From Clostridioides phage CD1801, in sequence record MW512570.1: a DNA stretch of 44,363 nucleotides; one strand, given 5' to 3'. A model generated the notes under the pieces. The model saw only the letters and a program-made list of their open reading frames with translations. It was not told the origin of the DNA and ran no database searches. Of the stretch, positions 2,336-44,363 are shown one piece after another. A program made the position numbers and the translations under genes. Numbering within the stretch: the first letter of the stretch is position 1; the number at the start of each line of letters is the position of its first letter.

Positions 2336-3097
2336 ATCACTATACAGAAGCTCGAAAAATAATACTTGAAATCTTGAAAAAACAAATATATGAAAGTGGT
2401 CAAGGGTTGCAACAGGATACTGAAAACTTTGGTAACGCCTCGGGTAAAAATGCCATGCCCCCTATGTTAGAAATAGCATAGTGAAAATCGGGTTAAAATT
2501 GGAAATCTTAATTTTGCGTTAATAGAATTTATCGAAAAACACCAGTTTTAGTGCTATAATATAAATATATTATTCATTAAAGAGGTGTTGAAATTGAAAA
2601 TAGAGGGAACTAGATTTAAATTACATGATAAAGAAATAAGTAGACTAAAAGAATTAAAATTAAATGGTTATAAATTAATATCTAGTATGGGGATATAAAA
2701 ACTATATAGGTTGAGAAACGAGCCTAATACTAACGTTAATGGATACAAAGGTATCTTTGTTAGTAAAAGTCTTAAAGAATAATAATTAGTGTTAATATGT
2801 TGTAATTTATAGATTATTTTGTAAATGAGAGTATTAAAGAAAATTATTTAGTATTTAAGAAACCAACGTGTTTTAACCGTTGGAGTTTCAGAAACGCAAA
2901 AAAAGACAATCAATTACCAATCCTAGTGAGAAATCATAGGAAGGTTTAACGACTAGATAAAGTAAGCTAAGTAATTAAGACCGAAAGGTCTTTTTTATAT
3001 GCAGAAATATCCACGAAATCCGAAGCCTAAACAAGTAAAGTTGTAGGTTATGAGATAGTCTGAACTTATAGGAAACTATAAGAGGTAGAGGATAAAG
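2326..3097 (+). mobile_element. Candidate ORF-less group I self-splicing intron interrupting the portal gene. Boundaries are approximate.
   Basis: ~770 nt with no long ORF between the two portal reading-frame segments. An R-like P7 5' element GGTTTAACGACTAGAT lies at 2943-2958 and an S-like element GAGATAGTCTGAAC at 3052-3065. A P9-like hairpin with a GAAA loop lies at 3064-3084. A U at 2325 and G at 3097 give an intron length of 1 mod 3 that keeps the exons in frame. The alternative pairs 2332 with 3107 and 2332 with 3119 do the same. Confidence 0.5.
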
Positions 3098-3458
3098 AGC
3101 CTTTACGATAACAATTAAGGTGGCACTTAAATTTTTTTATAGAAAGCTAGAATTAAAGTCTGGATTACTTGAAACCGAGTTTAGAACCTCTTTTGATAAG
3201 CTGATTAAGGCTATACTATATTTTTTAGGAATTACAGACTATAAAAAGATACAACAAACATATACACGCAATATGATGTCAAATGATTTGGAGGATGCAG
3301 ATATAGCAACTAAGTCCGTTGGTATAATACCAATTAAAATTATTTTAAGGCACCATCCTTGGGTTGATGATGTTGAAGAAGCTGAAAGACTTTATTTAGA
3401 AGAAAAGAAAATACAAGCTTCAAAAGTATCTGATGATTATAATAACTTTGCTGAATAG
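3096..3458 (+). CDS. Portal protein, 3' part (exon 2).
   Basis: The frame is open from 3096 after an in-frame TAA at 3093. The ORF track starts it at a GTG at 3120. The C-terminal portal-like acidic tail precedes the gp7-like gene. Confidence 0.55.
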   Translation, partial: RAFTITIKVALKFFYRKLELKSGLLETEFRTSFDKLIKAILYFLGITDYKKIQQTYTRNMMSNDLEDADIATKSVGIIPIKIILRHHPWVDDVEEAERLYLEEKKIQASKVSDDYNNFAE

Positions 3459-5139: not shown

Positions 5140-5427
5140 TTGAGGGATGGAAATATGTTTAAAAAGAAATATATTAAAAAGCCAAGCAAAATAAGTGTTA
5201 GAAATATTATGGCATTTATTATTACAGTTGTTGGTATAGCTTTAGGTGTTTTTATAGGTATCAACATAATCATGGCTCATGTTTTAGGTATAGCTAACAT
5301 GGTAGATAATAATACTTTTACATGTGTTAGATTAGTTTATGGCTTAGCAGGAGTTATAAGTGGGTATTTGATAGGAAAAGCAATATACCTTATAGCTTCG
5401 CTAATAAGCCATATTATTTATGAATAA
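5140..5427 (+). CDS. Small membrane protein (two predicted TM helices).
   Basis: Two hydrophobic segments in the translation. Confidence 0.4.
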   Translation: MRDGNMFKKKYIKKPSKISVRNIMAFIITVVGIALGVFIGINIIMAHVLGIANMVDNNTFTCVRLVYGLAGVISGYLIGKAIYLIASLISHIIYE

Positions 5428-5477
5428 TTTGTTCAAAGATTTTTTATTTTGTAAGAAATGAAAGGAGGGTTGTATTA

Positions 5478-5708
5478 TTGAAAGAGTATGTAATTTGGTT
5501 TAAGAGTGGAAATTGTGTATCTGGAATAACAAACGAAGATGTTACTGATAAGTTAATGAAAGATTTTATGGAAGCTGACTCAGATTGTAGGTATTTGAAA
5601 GGATATTTAGATGAAGATGGAACAACAATAATAGATTTATCACAAATAGAAGCTATATCAATAAATAATTGTAGTGAGAATAATAATATTGGTTTTAGTA
5701 AGTCCTAG
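5478..5708 (+). CDS. Hypothetical protein.
   Basis: ORF with an SD (AAGGAGGG) 7 nt upstream of a TTG start. Confidence 0.35.
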   Translation: MKEYVIWFKSGNCVSGITNEDVTDKLMKDFMEADSDCRYLKGYLDEDGTTIIDLSQIEAISINNCSENNNIGFSKS

Positions 5709-5828
5709 ATAGGGCTTTTTTATTTTGCTCTTTTTAAAAAAGTTGTAGAGCATAAAGAACAAAGAAACTCTCACAGTTGGAGGGCAACTATAAAAATCTA
5801 TAGAGAAATAAGAAGGGATGATGAGGAA

Positions 5829-6425
5829 ATGGAATGGTTAAGAAAAATATTAGAAGGAATCAAAATCGAAGAAAATAAGATTGATGTTGAGGAAATATTA
5901 AAAAGCGTTAATACTGAATTTCCCAAACATGCAGTACCTAAAGAAACTTTTAATAAAGTGAATGAGCAATTAAAAGAAGCAGATAAGACTATAAAAAGTT
6001 TTAATAGTAAAATGACACAAGAAGATGTAGAAAAGCTTAAAACAGAGCATCAAACAGAAATTAAAAAGATAGAAGAGAATCATAAGCTAGAAGTTGAGAA
6101 AATACAAAACGAAAGTTTGAAAACAAGGAAATTAAGTGCTGTTGAGAAAGCTTTATTAACTAACAAAGCTAAACACACTGACTTACTAACAAATAAGTTT
6201 GACTTAGAAAAAATAACTATAGGTGAAGATGGCAAGATAGTAGGGATAGAGGAACAATTAAAAGGGTTACAAGAAAGCTACAAAGATTTGTTTGAAAGTA
6301 GTACAACTGAAACTACTACTCAAACAAATACACCTTTTTATAAATATATACCAGGTGGCAGTGGAGAAACAAATGAAACTGCAAATATGGAAACTGTAGT
6401 GAATGAAATACTAGGAGTTAAATAA
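5829..6425 (+). CDS. Putative scaffolding protein.
   Basis: Acidic, coiled-coil-rich, and placed immediately before the major capsid gene. Confidence 0.5.
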   Translation: MEWLRKILEGIKIEENKIDVEEILKSVNTEFPKHAVPKETFNKVNEQLKEADKTIKSFNSKMTQEDVEKLKTEHQTEIKKIEENHKLEVEKIQNESLKTRKLSAVEKALLTNKAKHTDLLTNKFDLEKITIGEDGKIVGIEEQLKGLQESYKDLFESSTTETTTQTNTPFYKYIPGGSGETNETANMETVVNEILGVK

Positions 6426-28878: not shown

Positions 28879-29428
28879 TATTTAGTTAATGAAACTTCAC
28901 TCTAGGCTAATAGATTGTAGTTTCTTTTTTTGTTTTTGATACGAATTTACATCTTTATTATATCGCATTTTGAGAAAAAATAAAACTATGAATATTAGAA
29001 ATATATTTTATTTTATCTCTAAGTATATATATTATTAGCCACCTAAAAAACTTTCATAAAAACAAAAAGAACAATATCTTTTTGGCAACTGGCTGGCATA
29101 ATTTATAAGAATTTTATAAATCTTAGTCCCTATAGCTTTGCGTCACTAATTTTCTCTAGTTTTGCCGATTTAGTTTTGTTATACAACTAAAATAATACAA
29201 TAGAATTAGTTAATGTTCAACAAGGTTGTTTGAAAATTAAATAAATTTATAGGTATGAATAGTATTTATTCCTAAAAAGGAACAGAGTATTTAAAGGTCA
29301 AGGTAAGTTAGAATAGTATTGTGAACTAACATTTGATTATGCGAAATTCTATGAAACAGGAACCCTGTGACTTTAGTCATGGGAGGTTCAGTGTATATCG
29401 CGTATTTCAATTGTTATAAGTATTTTAT

Positions 29429-39700: not shown

Positions 39701-40555
39701 ATGAATGAAAATATAAATAAAGAAATAACAGTACTTGGAACTTTAGAAATCGAGGGAATGAAATTTCATAACATTGAGGGTGGATTTGGAGAACATAAGA
39801 AAGCAATGCTAGTAAAAGATATAGCTGAGATACATAATAGAGAACTTAAACATATAAATGAGCTAATTAATAATAATATAAAGAGATTTAAAACAAATAT
39901 AGATATTATAGATTTAAAAGTGAGTCGTTCTGAACGACTAGGTGATTTAAAGGCTAATCCTTCAAAAGGATTAGGTTGCGAGGATGTTGGGTATAGTAAA
40001 CAATCTTTTAATCAGTCAAGAAATGTTTACTTGTTATCTGAAAGAGGTTATTCAAAACTACTTAAAATATTGGAGGATGATATAGCTTGGGAACAATACG
40101 AGAAAATAGTTGATGGATATTTCTCTATGAGAAAAGAATTAAATAATCCTCTTTTAAGTGCATCAAAGGAGTTACAGGCTATATTTATGCTAGATAAGAA
40201 ACAAGAAGTCTTAGAAACTAAAATAGAGAATGTTAATGAGAAGTTAGAGAACTTTATGGATGATGCACCATTATTCAATATCGAGTGTGAGTGTATTGTT
40301 AAAGAGGTTAAGAGAGTAGCAACAAAATCACTTGGTGGACATGGAAGTAAGGCTTATAAAAATAAATCTTTAAGAGGTAAAGTTTATAGTGATATATACC
40401 ATCAGATTAAACGAGAATTTGGAGTAGATAGTTATAAGGCTATAAAGCGTTGTCAATTAGATAAAGTATTAGAGATTGTAAATAGTTATAAGTTACCTAT
40501 AGTGTTTGAAGAAGAAATAAGACTTTTGAATAGTCAATTATCAATTGTGAGTTAA
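39701..40555 (+). CDS. Antirepressor-like regulatory protein (ORF6C-type C-terminal domain).
   Basis: The C-terminal region KSLRGKVYSDIYHQIKREFGVDSYKAIKRCQLDKVLEIV resembles the ORF6C domain. Confidence 0.4.
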   Translation: MNENINKEITVLGTLEIEGMKFHNIEGGFGEHKKAMLVKDIAEIHNRELKHINELINNNIKRFKTNIDIIDLKVSRSERLGDLKANPSKGLGCEDVGYSKQSFNQSRNVYLLSERGYSKLLKILEDDIAWEQYEKIVDGYFSMRKELNNPLLSASKELQAIFMLDKKQEVLETKIENVNEKLENFMDDAPLFNIECECIVKEVKRVATKSLGGHGSKAYKNKSLRGKVYSDIYHQIKREFGVDSYKAIKRCQLDKVLEIVNSYKLPIVFEEEIRLLNSQLSIVS

Positions 40556-40697
40556 GACAGGAATAGATTTTTCTCCTTTAAAGGGGAAAACCTGCAATAG
40601 TTAATTAAAAGAGAAAAGGAGTGCTTTCACACTCCACTTGTCAAAAATATAAAACTTTTATCCAAGATTATTATAACATAAACAGGAGTGTGGAAGT

Positions 40698-41186
40698 ATG
40701 GATAATAATATTAATAAAAAAGAACTATTTAAAAAAGTAGAAGGTAGACTACATCATTATAAATTTTTAAGTGCAGAAATTAAAAATCTTGAATTAGATA
40801 TAGAAAGTAGAGAAAATGAAATATTTGGTTGTAAGGCTATCGGGTATGGTGAAAAAGTAAGTCCAACATATGCTTTTAATTCAACTGTTGAGAATGAGAT
40901 TATAAAAAAAGAAAGAGATATTGCTAGATTAAAAAAACTGAAAAAAGATAAAGAAATAGAAAAGAAGAAAATAGAAAATGCACTTACATGCTTAGATATA
41001 AGAGAAGAACATTTTTTTAAACTGTTTTATAATAGCAGAATGAAAAATAGTATGGTTTATATATCCTTAGAAATGAACTCAGATAGGAAAACATGTAGAT
41101 GTGTAAGGGAAAGATTAGTGTATAAAGTTATGGATATGCTTTATCCAAGAATTAAGGAAAATGAACTCCCATTATTTAAAAATTAG
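40698..41186 (+). CDS. ArpU/RinA-family late transcriptional activator.
   Basis: Size, basic charge and placement immediately upstream of the packaging genes. Confidence 0.5.
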   Translation: MDNNINKKELFKKVEGRLHHYKFLSAEIKNLELDIESRENEIFGCKAIGYGEKVSPTYAFNSTVENEIIKKERDIARLKKLKKDKEIEKKKIENALTCLDIREEHFFKLFYNSRMKNSMVYISLEMNSDRKTCRCVRERLVYKVMDMLYPRIKENELPLFKN

Positions 41187-41710
41187 AAAATTCCCCAGTT
41201 TTTCCCCAGAAATTCCCACTTTATTCCCTACTTTCTCCCCGTTTTGATTAAAAAAGCATGAGATAATAGTATTGTGGAAATAAAGATTTCCCTCTCAAAA
41301 CTTAATATTTGACTAGGGTTAAGGGATTGCCCTAGTCACTATGAACAGACTAGGCAGGGCATGAGGATGCTGTTAGTTCAATTCTAACTATGTTCAAAGG
41401 TAAATGACTTAACATACCACTAAAAAACAGAGAAATTGAGGGCGAAATTTTATATTTTGTATCTTAATTCAGAAGTCTAAAAACCGAGTGGGGCTTGGTA
41501 ACCTCACTCACCATGCAAGTGTTGGTACATTATTCTAAGTTCGATTCTTAGAACTTGCTCCCTTAATAATATGTATCTCCCATTAAAAAGGCTTAGATTA
41601 ATTTCTAGGTCTTTTTTTATACAATTTTAATCCCTCATATTGAGGGGGCGAAAATAAGGGTATTCAAATTGAACACCTTTTATACAATAAATTAAAAGGA
41701 GAATGATATT

Positions 41711-41899
41711 ATGGAGATTAAGAAAAACACACAAGATGTAGTATCAGAAAGAAAAAATTCCCTAGATTCTGAATTCAAGATACCTGCAAGTGGTGTATGT
41801 TATATGGTTGAGTTCATACAAGAATCTAGGAAAATTATAAAAGAATTAGATAAACATTTTGAAAGTTGTTTAGATGTTTTATCTAAGGCAAGACTTTAG
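41711..41899 (+). CDS. Hypothetical small protein.
   Basis: SD AAAAGGAG. Its 3' end overlaps the convergent ORF by 21 bp. Confidence 0.35.
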   Translation: MEIKKNTQDVVSERKNSLDSEFKIPASGVCYMVEFIQESRKIIKELDKHFESCLDVLSKARL

Positions 41900-42196
41900 A
41901 TATTTTGAATATGCTGTGTCAAGCATAGTTTGCCAATTTGGAAAATCAGTATTTTCAACTATAAAAGAATCAAATTCATTATCAGGAATAGCTAAAAAGT
42001 CTTCTTCTGAATTGACTATGTAACCTCCAAATGTAAGTAGTTCATCAAAAGAATCAAAATTAGTGTGTTGGTTCATAAATTTCTTGTTGAGAATTATTGT
42101 GCGAATTTTATCAAATTCAGATTTTGAATTTTGTTCTATTTTCTCAATTTTCTTTTGAAATCGTTTTAAATTTTTGATGTCAACATTTTTACTCAT
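41879..42196 (-). CDS. Hypothetical 105-aa protein.
   Basis: Strong SD (AAGGAGGTG) on the minus strand. Divergent from the 42323 gene. Confidence 0.45.
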   Translation of the reverse strand: MSKNVDIKNLKRFQKKIEKIEQNSKSEFDKIRTIILNKKFMNQHTNFDSFDELLTFGGYIVNSEEDFLAIPDNEFDSFIVENTDFPNWQTMLDTAYSKYLKSCLR

Positions 42197-42322
42197 AATA
42201 ACACCTCCTTTCAGTAAAATTTTAGCATAATAACACAGCTTATTCTTCGATTGTCGAACGATTGCTGGAGGATATTATGTTTTAGTGTAGAAATTTATAT
42301 TTTGAAAGGAGAGGGAGCATTT

Positions 42323-43246
42323 ATGAATATAAGGGAAATAATGAATATTTTAAAACTGGAAAGGTCTGAAGTTAGATTATATTTCACTATGAAGAGGGGG
42401 ATAAATTACATAAGTTATTCTCCAACAATTGAAGATGGATTACAAGATTACTTGAAAAACTTAGTGTGCGAATATTTATTGAGATTTGAGGATATTGAGC
42501 AGGTTATGTTTAGTCCAATTGGATATAAAGATGAAACTATTGAAACTTGTGACATAGAATATATAGGATGTTATGAAAAAGTTATAGAAAGTTATAGAGA
42601 AGAAAATTTATCTAGAGATAATATTGAAAATAACATAATAAATAAATTGAATTTTTACTGTTTGAATATAAAATTTGAAGAAAATAATCAAGAAAAAGAA
42701 ATAAATTTTTTTAGAAGAGTAACGAAATTTAAAAAATTATCAAGTAAAGGTTTTATGGGTTTTATAAAAAATAATAGGTTTAAAAAATTAGATTCTAATT
42801 TATTAGGATTAGATGGTTTTATAGATATAGCTATATATGGTCAGGATGTTTTAATTTTTAATCATATTTCATTAGAGAGGATTTTCTCTATAGCAGATCA
42901 ATATTTAGAAAAGGCTCAAAATACTATAGATATAATAAGAGACATTAACAGGATAGATAACTTTGAACAATTTGAAGAAGATTGTTTAAATGATAGAAGA
43001 ATTACAAGAACTTTGACTAAAATGTTAAGTGAAGAGGCACGACTAGAAAATTGCTTTGATAATTTTGCTAATGTCGTTAATGCAATTGACTTATTCCAAT
43101 TAGATATAAATATAGATAGAAATGGAGAAAGAGATAAAGTGATTTATGAAAATAAAGAACAATTAATGGACATAATAAGATTAGTAAGAGATTCTTATTA
43201 TAAGAGTATAATCCATGATAGAAAAGGAATTGATGATAGTATATAA
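42323..43246 (+). CDS. Unknown soluble protein (~307 aa). First gene of a candidate two-gene accessory/defence module.
   Basis: ATG after GAAAGGAGAGGG. The ORF track extends it to 42251. No recognisable phage-core function. Flanked by the late activator and terS. Confidence 0.45.
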   Translation: MNIREIMNILKLERSEVRLYFTMKRGINYISYSPTIEDGLQDYLKNLVCEYLLRFEDIEQVMFSPIGYKDETIETCDIEYIGCYEKVIESYREENLSRDNIENNIINKLNFYCLNIKFEENNQEKEINFFRRVTKFKKLSSKGFMGFIKNNRFKKLDSNLLGLDGFIDIAIYGQDVLIFNHISLERIFSIADQYLEKAQNTIDIIRDINRIDNFEQFEEDCLNDRRITRTLTKMLSEEARLENCFDNFANVVNAIDLFQLDINIDRNGERDKVIYENKEQLMDIIRLVRDSYYKSIIHDRKGIDDSI

Positions 43247-43268
43247 TTAAATAAAAGGAGGTGGTTGC

Positions 43269-43853
43269 ATGAATAGGTTGAACTATTTAAACATGAGAAT
43301 TAAAATGTTTATATCATCATACTTGCCTTTATACTTAATATTACTTACTATATATTCTGATAAAATTAATAGTTTTGATAAGATTAAGTTAATAATAAGA
43401 TTTGAAGATAAAATAGTTTCTTTATTTATAATAGCGGTATTTATCCTTGTAATCATCTCGTTTAGAACTTTAATTGATTTAAGAAGGACAAAAGGAAATG
43501 AAAATCATAAATTTGAGTTTTTTAATAAGACAGAGGATACAATAATTAGCTATATGATGACTTATATTGTTCCAATTTTATCTACAGATTTTCTTAGTAC
43601 AAAAACAATGACAATAAATTTAATTTTATATTCTTTAATCGGTTTAATGTATATTAAATTGAATCTTATATATTTAAATCCTTTGTGGTTATTGTTTGGA
43701 TATTCAGTTTACAAATCTGATAATGAAGTTGTCATCATAACCAATATACCTTATGGTAGATTAAAGACTCTAAGGAATACAAATCTAAAATCATCATATT
43801 TAGGTAATGATATTTATTTGATACAAAGAAGTGAAAATGACAATATAAACTAA
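43269..43853 (+). CDS. 4-TM membrane protein (194 aa), partner of 42323-43246.
   Basis: SD AAAGGAGGTGG. About four hydrophobic helices followed by a ~50-aa soluble C-terminal tail. The pair has its own terminator. Confidence 0.45.
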   Translation: MNRLNYLNMRIKMFISSYLPLYLILLTIYSDKINSFDKIKLIIRFEDKIVSLFIIAVFILVIISFRTLIDLRRTKGNENHKFEFFNKTEDTIISYMMTYIVPILSTDFLSTKTMTINLILYSLIGLMYIKLNLIYLNPLWLLFGYSVYKSDNEVVIITNIPYGRLKTLRNTNLKSSYLGNDIYLIQRSENDNIN

Positions 43854-43860
43854 CAAAAAC

Positions 43861-43892
43861 AGGACTCTAACCAGAGTTCTTTTTTATTCCCA
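43861..43892 (+). terminator. Rho-independent terminator.
   Basis: Stem AGGACTCT/AGAGTTCT with loop AACC, followed by TTTTTTATT. Confidence 0.5.
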
Positions 43893-43918
43893 AAACAAAC
43901 AAATAAAGAGGTGGTGAT

Positions 43919-44363
43919 ATGGCTAAATATGAATATTGGATAACAGAAGAAGGACTAATTAAGATTGAAGGATGGGCAAGAGATGGGCTTACAGATGAAC
44001 AGATAGCACTCAATATTGGAATAAATGTCAAAACACTATATGACTGGAAAAAGAAGTATAGTAATATTTGTAATGCCTTAAAAAAGGGAAAAGAAGTAAT
44101 TGATAGACAGGTTGAAAATGCTTTACTAAAAAGAGCATTAGGTTATGAATATGATGAGATAACATATGAAGAAGGTCAAGAAACTAAAAGAGTAACTAAA
44201 CAAGTAATGCCAGATGTTACGGCACAGATATTCTGGTTGAAAAATAGAAAACCAGTTGAATGGAGGGATAAACAAATAGTAGAATCAACTAATGAAATTA
44301 CAATAAATAATCCATTTAAAGAACTATCTACAGAAGAATTAAAAAGGTTGGCAAAATTAGATG
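43919..44363 (+). CDS. terS: Terminase small subunit, 3'-truncated by the window edge.
   Basis: SD AGAGGTGGTG. N-terminal HTH-like region (LTDEQIALNIGINVKTLYDWKKKY). Continues into terL if the record is circular. Confidence 0.6.
   Translation, partial: MAKYEYWITEEGLIKIEGWARDGLTDEQIALNIGINVKTLYDWKKKYSNICNALKKGKEVIDRQVENALLKRALGYEYDEITYEEGQETKRVTKQVMPDVTAQIFWLKNRKPVEWRDKQIVESTNEITINNPFKELSTEELKRLAKLD

Follow-up and report, generated by a model that had tools for sequence, protein, structure and literature searches.

A kwaB-kwaA pair ahead of the small terminase gene of Clostridioides phage CD1801 as a probable Kiwa defense cassette

The DNA analyzed here is a stretch of 44,363 nucleotides from Clostridioides phage CD1801 (record MW512570.1), called the window from here on, and its subject is a pair of genes situated between the late transcriptional regulator and the gene for the small terminase subunit (terS). 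An initial annotation of the same letters had singled out this pair, a soluble protein of about 307 amino acids (aa) followed by a 194-aa membrane protein, as an undescribed accessory system for defense against phages. Very probably, positions 42323-43853 hold a complete and intact Kiwa system in the Firmicutes arrangement, kwaB followed by kwaA, which forms an exchangeable cassette in a phiCD119-like C. difficile prophage, in the variable slot that separates its late regulator from terS. All the defining features of Kiwa that can be tested on sequence are present in the pair. The view of the pair as accessory anti-phage defense is in accordance with this, the family being Kiwa; the system itself has been described before, the phage lineage has been sequenced, and databases recognize the pair.

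The 307-aa protein matches the PADLOC model of KwaB (PDLC00231) with an E value of 4.3e-122, residues 1-307 covering positions 1-305 of the 305-position profile, and six further KwaB models match it as well. In Pfam it matches PF16162 ("Kiwa protein KwaB-like", DUF4868) through residues 109-297 with 163.4 bits (cutoff 26.3). Its closest named relative is a C. difficile protein, 80% identical, which carries the NCBI name "Kiwa anti-phage protein KwaB-like domain-containing protein". The AlphaFold model (predicted local distance difference test, pLDDT, 85.7) shows beta/alpha elements as far as residue 178 from the N-terminus and helices in its C-terminal part, and as modeled the protein has the two domains expected of KwaB in Kiwa, an N-terminal alpha/beta Rossmann-like domain and a C-terminal DUF4868. 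A Foldseek comparison of this model with the PDB gave six matches with E ≤ 0.001, all of them KwaB chains (9nyu, 9mrx, 9mtn), with E values from 4e-10 to 2e-8, a probability of 1.00, full-length alignments and TM-scores of about 0.5. The basic residues R131, K135, R186, R226, K278 and R286 are, among many others, invariant in the DUF4868 part of the KwaB clade. Judged by homology and by its modeled fold, the 307-aa protein is KwaB, which would be the cytosolic DNA-binding component of Kiwa. As an observation on the side, the profile of the KwaB clade also reached the IncC plasmid regulator AcaB in the PDB (6n8b; E 0.057, profile positions 128-212), level with solved KwaB, which hints that DUF4868 and AcaB-type DNA-binding domains may be distantly related.

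The 194-aa protein matches the PADLOC model of KwaA (PDLC00208) with an E value of 8.1e-66, residues 6-191 on positions 2-189 of 190, together with 12 further KwaA models; the only PADLOC match outside Kiwa was a marginal one to PDC-M39A (E 0.0017). A phmmer search of PDB sequences found solved KwaA (9mrg, E 8.8e-6). The scan against our local Pfam copy, which holds no KwaA model, gave no match for this protein, while in the protein collection the precomputed Pfam annotation assigns PF28043 to all KwaA homologues, a family that is named KwaA in the contig look-up. Published KwaA has four transmembrane helices and a beta-barrel built from intracellular loop 1 (ICL1) and the C-terminus (PMC11785009). 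In the AlphaFold model of the 194-aa protein (pLDDT 81.2) there are long helices at 3-33, 48-73, 89-103 and 111-131, four in all, and strands at 78-81, 146-149, 155-158, 172-179 and 182-185, and all seven of its Foldseek matches in the PDB with E ≤ 0.001 are KwaA chains, the best being 9mrx_A (TM-score 0.66, E 2.4e-7). The four transmembrane segments proposed at first are supported by the four long helices of this model, but a Kyte-Doolittle scan shows only two strong hydrophobic windows. As modeled, the protein has what defines KwaA in Kiwa, namely a size of about 190-200 aa, four transmembrane helices and, on the cytoplasmic side, a beta-barrel to which ICL1 and the C-terminus contribute. 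R73, N77 and E78 in its ICL1 align to K75, Q79 and D80, residues of E. coli KwaA that contact KwaB, and are conservative replacements. By homology and model the 194-aa protein is KwaA, predicted to be a four-helix membrane component with cytoplasmic beta strands. A Kiwa-like pair of a KwaA-type four-helix protein with a soluble partner had been the first family named in the initial annotation, and PADLOC, Pfam and Foldseek bear it out, both proteins being KwaA and KwaB over their full length.

The two genes lie adjacent on one strand with a gap of 22 nt and a single shared downstream terminator. Each has a Shine-Dalgarno sequence, GGAGAGGGAG 5 nt 5' of the kwaB ATG and AGGAGG 7 nt 5' of the kwaA start; strong ribosome-binding sites and a terminator had been noted at the outset. 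The mechanical open reading frame (ORF) for the 307-aa gene runs from a TTG at 42251 and would give 331 aa; the start was placed at the ATG because the homologues all begin at a conserved M1. The GC minimum of the region (0.22-0.25) falls over the pair. The same arrangement was found in relatives recovered from one-genome-per-species contigs of Clostridia and Bacilli, where kwaA lies 20-75 nt 3' of kwaB in all 16 cases; among them are Eubacteriaceae, Desulfotomaculum, Ruminococcus, Bacillus, Peribacillus, Priestia, Paenibacillus, Peptoanaerobacter, Tissierella and Virgibacillus. The order is thus no peculiarity of this locus; the E. coli type system is written the other way round, kwaA then kwaB, an order on which the text of the E. 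coli Kiwa paper gave no confirmation.

The identical 194-aa KwaA is present on 539 contigs (873 index blocks) of the protein collection, and all eight places that we inspected were C. difficile chromosomes, in a prophage and at this position, with at least four terminase types. One of these chromosomes (GCA_019880625.1) has two prophages, L021 and L022 in our locus labels, with different terminases and head genes, and each carries the identical block of the 62-aa ORF (orf62), the 105-aa ORF (orf105), kwaB and kwaA, preceded by RosmerTA. A search of the open-access literature found no paper specifically on Kiwa in C. difficile or its phages.

Exchangeable cassette and cargo slot

Comparison with phage phiC2 delimits the cassette. 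Nucleotide similarity to phiC2 covers the divergent intergenic region that precedes kwaB as far as a -10-like box, stops at 42276/42277 and resumes at 43875/43876 inside the terminator, from where it continues into the run of T and the terS leader. Where the window has the Kiwa cassette, phiC2 has 296 bp that contain the 75-aa gene phiC2p85 and end in a different hairpin and the same run of T. A promoter-like element and the shared 3' junction therefore come from the flanks while the cargo between them is swapped, and the predicted promoter is part of the slot's conserved left flank and not of the cargo.

To describe the slot more broadly, we surveyed 39 phage and prophage sequences with the conserved element upstream of it. 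The stretch before terS is highly variable in this survey: it holds an acetyltransferase gene with gp74, orf62 with orf105, phiC2p85 or many unrelated ORFs. Kiwa was present in eight of the 39 sequences, which are the window, phiCD119 and six loci that had been fetched for their identical KwaA, and in none (0/49) of the IMG/VR loci found independently via the upstream element. The slot of L021 and L022 also holds RosmerTA (RmrT, E 4e-15; RmrA, E 1e-124), and that of L059 a 691-aa bacterial NACHT protein (SNaCT5, E 3e-33) beside a 309-aa ORF. PADLOC gave no match for ten other cargo proteins of the slot, and Pfam identified only the NACHT protein among them. The slot corresponds to 41601-43918 of the window, and cargo stretches in relatives include 4175-5996 of L021 and 4253-4548 of L002; several pairs of cargo genes without a family are candidates for new defense genes, among them those for proteins of 461 aa and 244 aa (L044) and of 233 aa and 268 aa (L033).

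Such a pattern is well known from defense hotspots of prophages, and in the literature we found nothing specific on a defense hotspot in C. difficile prophages. A more far-reaching idea is that the slot is a dedicated site for exchange of defense cargo, anchored by the non-coding unit of about 370 nt described below, which would perhaps be a new class of phage RNA, and that Kiwa acts here as entry-triggered superinfection exclusion which spares its own prophage; we consider this combination rather improbable.

For annotation, the result means that ORF77/78 of phiCD119, gp87/88 of phiCDHM19 and many prophage copies in C. difficile can be named Kiwa (KwaB, KwaA). For phage therapy and typing it means that a common C. 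difficile prophage family carries a defense that would sense phage entry, and that lysogens may resist therapeutic phages because their prophages carry Kiwa, or RosmerTA or the NACHT protein in the same slot. The understanding of Kiwa itself is unchanged by the finding.

Alternative explanations

Several points weigh against the reading of the pair as Kiwa. Identity to the structurally characterized E. coli Kiwa proteins is only 14-20%, and the protective function of this Kiwa clade in C. difficile would be transferred by analogy. For KwaB, phmmer gave no match among PDB sequences and a profile of 26 KwaB sequences reached solved KwaB in the PDB only at E 0.086; since these sequence searches left KwaB undecided, it was the fold comparison that settled it, and even there the superposition, with its TM-score of about 0.5, shows a difference in domain orientation or detail. 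The promoter scan gave no excess of promoter-like sites over shuffled sequence; the candidate ahead of kwaB is a consensus match only, and expression in the lysogen is a prediction. C. difficile, a Gram-positive anaerobe, is not known to have RecBCD, which E. coli has, and uses AddAB instead; with a Gram-positive envelope and AddAB for RecBCD, both the trigger and the way in which Gam-like inhibitors interact with the system may be altered, and the Gam/RecBCD relation of E. coli may not apply.

A further such point comes from the old phiCD119 record (NC_007917, L001), in which kwaA (5247-5831) contains two indels, +1 and -1, with about 65 nt between them, that lead to stops in helix 2. The two compensating frameshifts explain the truncated gp78 annotation of 99 aa in that record. 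They may be an error of an old record or a real pseudogene, and in the latter case the system may be dispensable. This frameshifted copy, along with the minority status of Kiwa among the cargo of the slot (absent from all the independently found IMG/VR loci), is what would speak for inert or decaying cargo, that is, for Kiwa by descent whose function has been lost in this phage. We regard this as very unlikely, as both reading frames in the window are intact, KwaA is 100% identical on all of the contigs counted above, and the ribosome-binding sites, the terminator and the family-invariant residues have all been retained.

Of similarly small probability is a module of four genes, in which orf62 and orf105 would regulate this Kiwa or be accessory to it, such as a control protein or a self-immunity factor directed against Kiwa. 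The order orf62, orf105, kwaB, kwaA is indeed found in eight of eight C. difficile places with identical KwaA, and orf105 is divergent from kwaB and has the intergenic region in common with it. However, phiC2 (where orf105 is phiC2p84), phiMMP01, phiMMP03 and 11 IMG/VR loci have orf62 and orf105 and lack Kiwa, and in the other genera all 16 Kiwa loci are devoid of homologues of either ORF. Distant homologues of orf105 are scattered over unrelated phages of Geobacillus, Bacillus (SPbeta-like), Pseudoalteromonas, Pseudomonas, Staphylococcus and Streptococcus. PADLOC and Pfam scans of the 62-aa and 105-aa proteins gave neither a defense family nor a helix-turn-helix. Because each of them occurs without Kiwa, and Kiwa without them, orf62 and orf105 are neighbors separate from the Kiwa module, and the earlier inclusion of the 105-aa gene in the module had to be given up. 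We also considered whether the 105-aa gene is a truncated form of a larger protein, since it matches positions 273-380 of the 395-position phrog_2211, and dropped this as the alignments with its homologues in other phages are of about the same length.

An undescribed two-gene defense or abortive-infection system, similar to Kiwa in layout only, has next to no probability and is already refuted on homology, for although the small percentage of residues shared with the solved E. coli proteins and the empty phmmer search with KwaB would speak for it, both proteins match Kiwa family models very strongly over their full length, their fold matches are exclusively KwaA and KwaB chains, NCBI gives the close C. 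difficile relative a Kiwa name, PF28043 is KwaA, and the CD-NTase, Pycsar and Abi models were all unmatched. Nor is the system a new one: Kiwa has been known since 2018 and its structures were solved in 2025 (PMC11785009), the cassette is present in phiCD119 and phiCDHM19, and the database names for both proteins given above already point to Kiwa. The proposal of a CD-NTase or Pycsar cyclase as the soluble partner found no support, the PADLOC scan of the 307-aa protein (E ≤ 1) having returned only KwaB and Pfam likewise only KwaB. PADLOC-DB includes CBASS and Pycsar models. A place among abortive-infection families was contradicted as well, as no Abi model in PADLOC matched any of the four proteins and Kiwa is reported to preserve viability; in E. 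coli the cell survives, hence it is not abortive infection (PMC11785009).

Layout of the region and other features of the window

Coordinates of the region are given in Table 1. The four ORFs of 62, 105, 307 and 194 aa between the late regulator and terS all exist as first described. The phiCD418 gene under the late-regulator match is annotated as a RinA transcriptional activator, and orf105 is convergent with orf62, with an overlap of 21 nt. The gap between the end of the late regulator and the start of terS is 2732 bp, in agreement with the 2.7 kb estimated before; only the cassette within it is accessory, though, and 524 bp of the gap (41187-41710) is the region of a conserved non-coding unit.

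Table 1. Features of the region before terS, of the non-coding unit and of the rest of the window (positions in the window).
Feature	Position	Strand	Evidence or remark
Late regulator	40698-41186		phrog_36 "transcriptional regulator"
Non-coding unit	41256-41625	+	just 3' of the late regulator
Unit core	41343-41558		almost invariant
First tRNA-like minihelix	41357-41396		acceptor/T-arm; G3.U70, A73
Invariant hairpin of the unit	41486-41509		8 bp
Second tRNA-like minihelix	about 41514-41559		acceptor/T-arm
Intrinsic terminator of the unit	41589-41613		compensatory stem changes
orf62, 62 aa	41711-41899	+	phrog_4010, full length, E 4.5e-45
orf105, 105 aa	41879-42196	-	without PADLOC or Pfam family
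Sigma-70-like promoter candidate	42251-42278	+	consensus scan; TTGTCG, 16 nt, TATTAT; divergent intergenic region ahead of kwaB
Exchangeable Kiwa cassette, 1.6 kb	42277-43875	+	limits from blastn against phiC2 and phiCD119; both junctions aligned at the nucleotide level
kwaB, 307 aa	42323 (ATG)-43246	+	PADLOC, Pfam, AlphaFold/Foldseek
kwaA, 194 aa	43269-43853	+	PADLOC, phmmer to PDB, AlphaFold/Foldseek
Intrinsic terminator of the kwaB-kwaA unit	43861-43890	+	terminator scan; hairpin 43861-43880 (8-bp stem, 4-nt loop), then run of T
terS (small terminase subunit)	starts 43919		phrog_309, E 2e-67
Large terminase, 468 aa	1-1407		opens the window
Portal gene (SPP1_portal), split	1436-2335, 3120-3458		interrupted by 2336-3119
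Group I intron match	2825-3082	+	Rfam, sub-threshold
c-di-GMP-I riboswitch (RF01051)	29081-29176	-	Rfam, 69.1 bits, E 1e-11

The non-coding unit always lies 5' of the cargo slot and terS. Its core hardly changes in 34 distinct C. difficile phage and prophage sequences, and its flanks are far more variable. Two minihelices in it resemble the acceptor and T-arm of tRNA, their T-loops (UUCAAUU and UUCGAUU) being canonical, and the first carries G3.U70 and A73. Against the Rfam tRNA model the first minihelix scored 17.3 bits (E 0.62), under the threshold of 29, and over the second it took a lowered ARAGORN threshold (-ps80) to obtain a call, an 80-nt degenerate tRNA-Met(CAT); with ARAGORN at default settings and with Rfam (E ≤ 1, positions 40500-44363) no RNA gene was called in the region. 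Three of the 12 pairs in the stem of the unit's intrinsic terminator are double-changed among phages, the + strand of the unit folds better than shuffled sequences (z = -3.0), and according to RNAalifold 41354-41358 may pair at long range with 41554-41558, although there is little covariation in so constant a sequence. Possible roles of this unit of about 370 nt are that it signals processing, that it acts as a tRNA decoy or that it anchors the recombination by which cassettes are swapped.

Directly after the stop of the late regulator there are five repeats of the TTCCC(C) type with a spacing of about 11 bp (41190-41240), and one ATTCCC (43886-43891) lies immediately 5' of terS. Neither TTCCCC nor ATTCCC is enriched over the whole window, and it is only the local phased cluster that stands out; it could be an operator for the activator or a binding array for the terminase (pac).

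Elsewhere in the window 784 bp that contain no ORF interrupt the portal gene, while in sibling prophages it is uninterrupted and codes for about 450 aa. The Rfam match to a group I intron within this insert reached 23.6 bits (E 0.0014; gathering score 50). The large terminase has 797-799 aa in the siblings L020 (9096-11489), L024 (9093-11489) and L026 (9093-11492) as compared with the length in Table 1, which suggests an intein or some other in-frame insertion in those siblings. The cyclic di-GMP (c-di-GMP-I) riboswitch is situated in the lysogeny-side region, and such riboswitches are known in phiCD119-like phages.

Comparison with known Kiwa systems

The nearest counterparts are in phages phiCD119 (ORF77/ORF78) and phiCDHM19 (gp87/gp88), which have the cassette as in the window, at the same place before terS and with KwaB 100% identical in both. 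Positions 41678-44160 of the window are 98.3% identical to phiCD119 at the nucleotide level, and the match to phiCDHM19 is at 96.6%. Both of these phages differ in carrying gp74 and an acetyltransferase gene upstream (1165 bp), where the window has 77 bp (41601-41677). In their records the pair is labeled "DUF4868 domain-containing" or "hypothetical", and ORF78 of phiCD119 in RefSeq is a 99-aa hypothetical protein.

A Kiwa with the same Firmicutes gene order is that of Streptococcus thermophilus 90730 (St90730_688/689), listed as "(kwaB, kwaA)", which gave 4-5 log protection against lactococcal phages in Lactococcus (PMC11514479). It is chromosomal and sits in a CRISPR-associated defense island (PMC11514479), whereas the Kiwa of the window is on a phage.

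The mechanism of Kiwa is known from E. coli, where its defining trait is protection against phage (and conjugation) with both genes required (PMC11785009). KwaA tetramers and KwaB dimers form a membrane supercomplex there, which is activated at sites of phage attachment or DNA ejection through membrane distortion; KwaB then binds DNA non-specifically via DUF4868, which stalls phage replication and in turn late transcription, and Gam-type DNA mimics inhibit KwaB (PMC11785009). By analogy, KwaA tetramers in the membrane of a CD1801 lysogen would hold KwaB dimers in a supercomplex, KwaA would sense the distortion of the membrane that arises when a phage attaches or ejects its DNA, and KwaB would bind DNA non-specifically through DUF4868 and stall replication of that phage, then its late transcription. 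Transfer of this mechanism is supported by the conservative replacements R73, N77 and E78 in ICL1 and by the retention of the invariant Arg and Lys residues of DUF4868. We infer that a prophage could carry Kiwa to exclude superinfecting phages without harm to its own induction, because the trigger is entry from outside.

The E. coli systems (O55:H7 RM12579, ECOR8/12/49; structures 9mrg, 9mrr, 9mrx, 9mtn and 9nyu) have, like the window, a four-helix KwaA of about 195 aa with a cytoplasmic beta domain and a KwaB of about 310 aa that has an alpha/beta domain at its N-terminus plus DUF4868, the two genes being adjacent and co-directional (PMC11785009). The folds match those of the window proteins and the KwaA interface loop is conservatively kept, yet sequence identity is as low as stated above. 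In a survey of Kiwa about half of the dereplicated loci were on mobile elements, prophages accounting for 197-198 of about 1,260 (PMC11785009), and this frequent carriage by prophages is a trait that E. coli Kiwa has in common with the Kiwa of the window.

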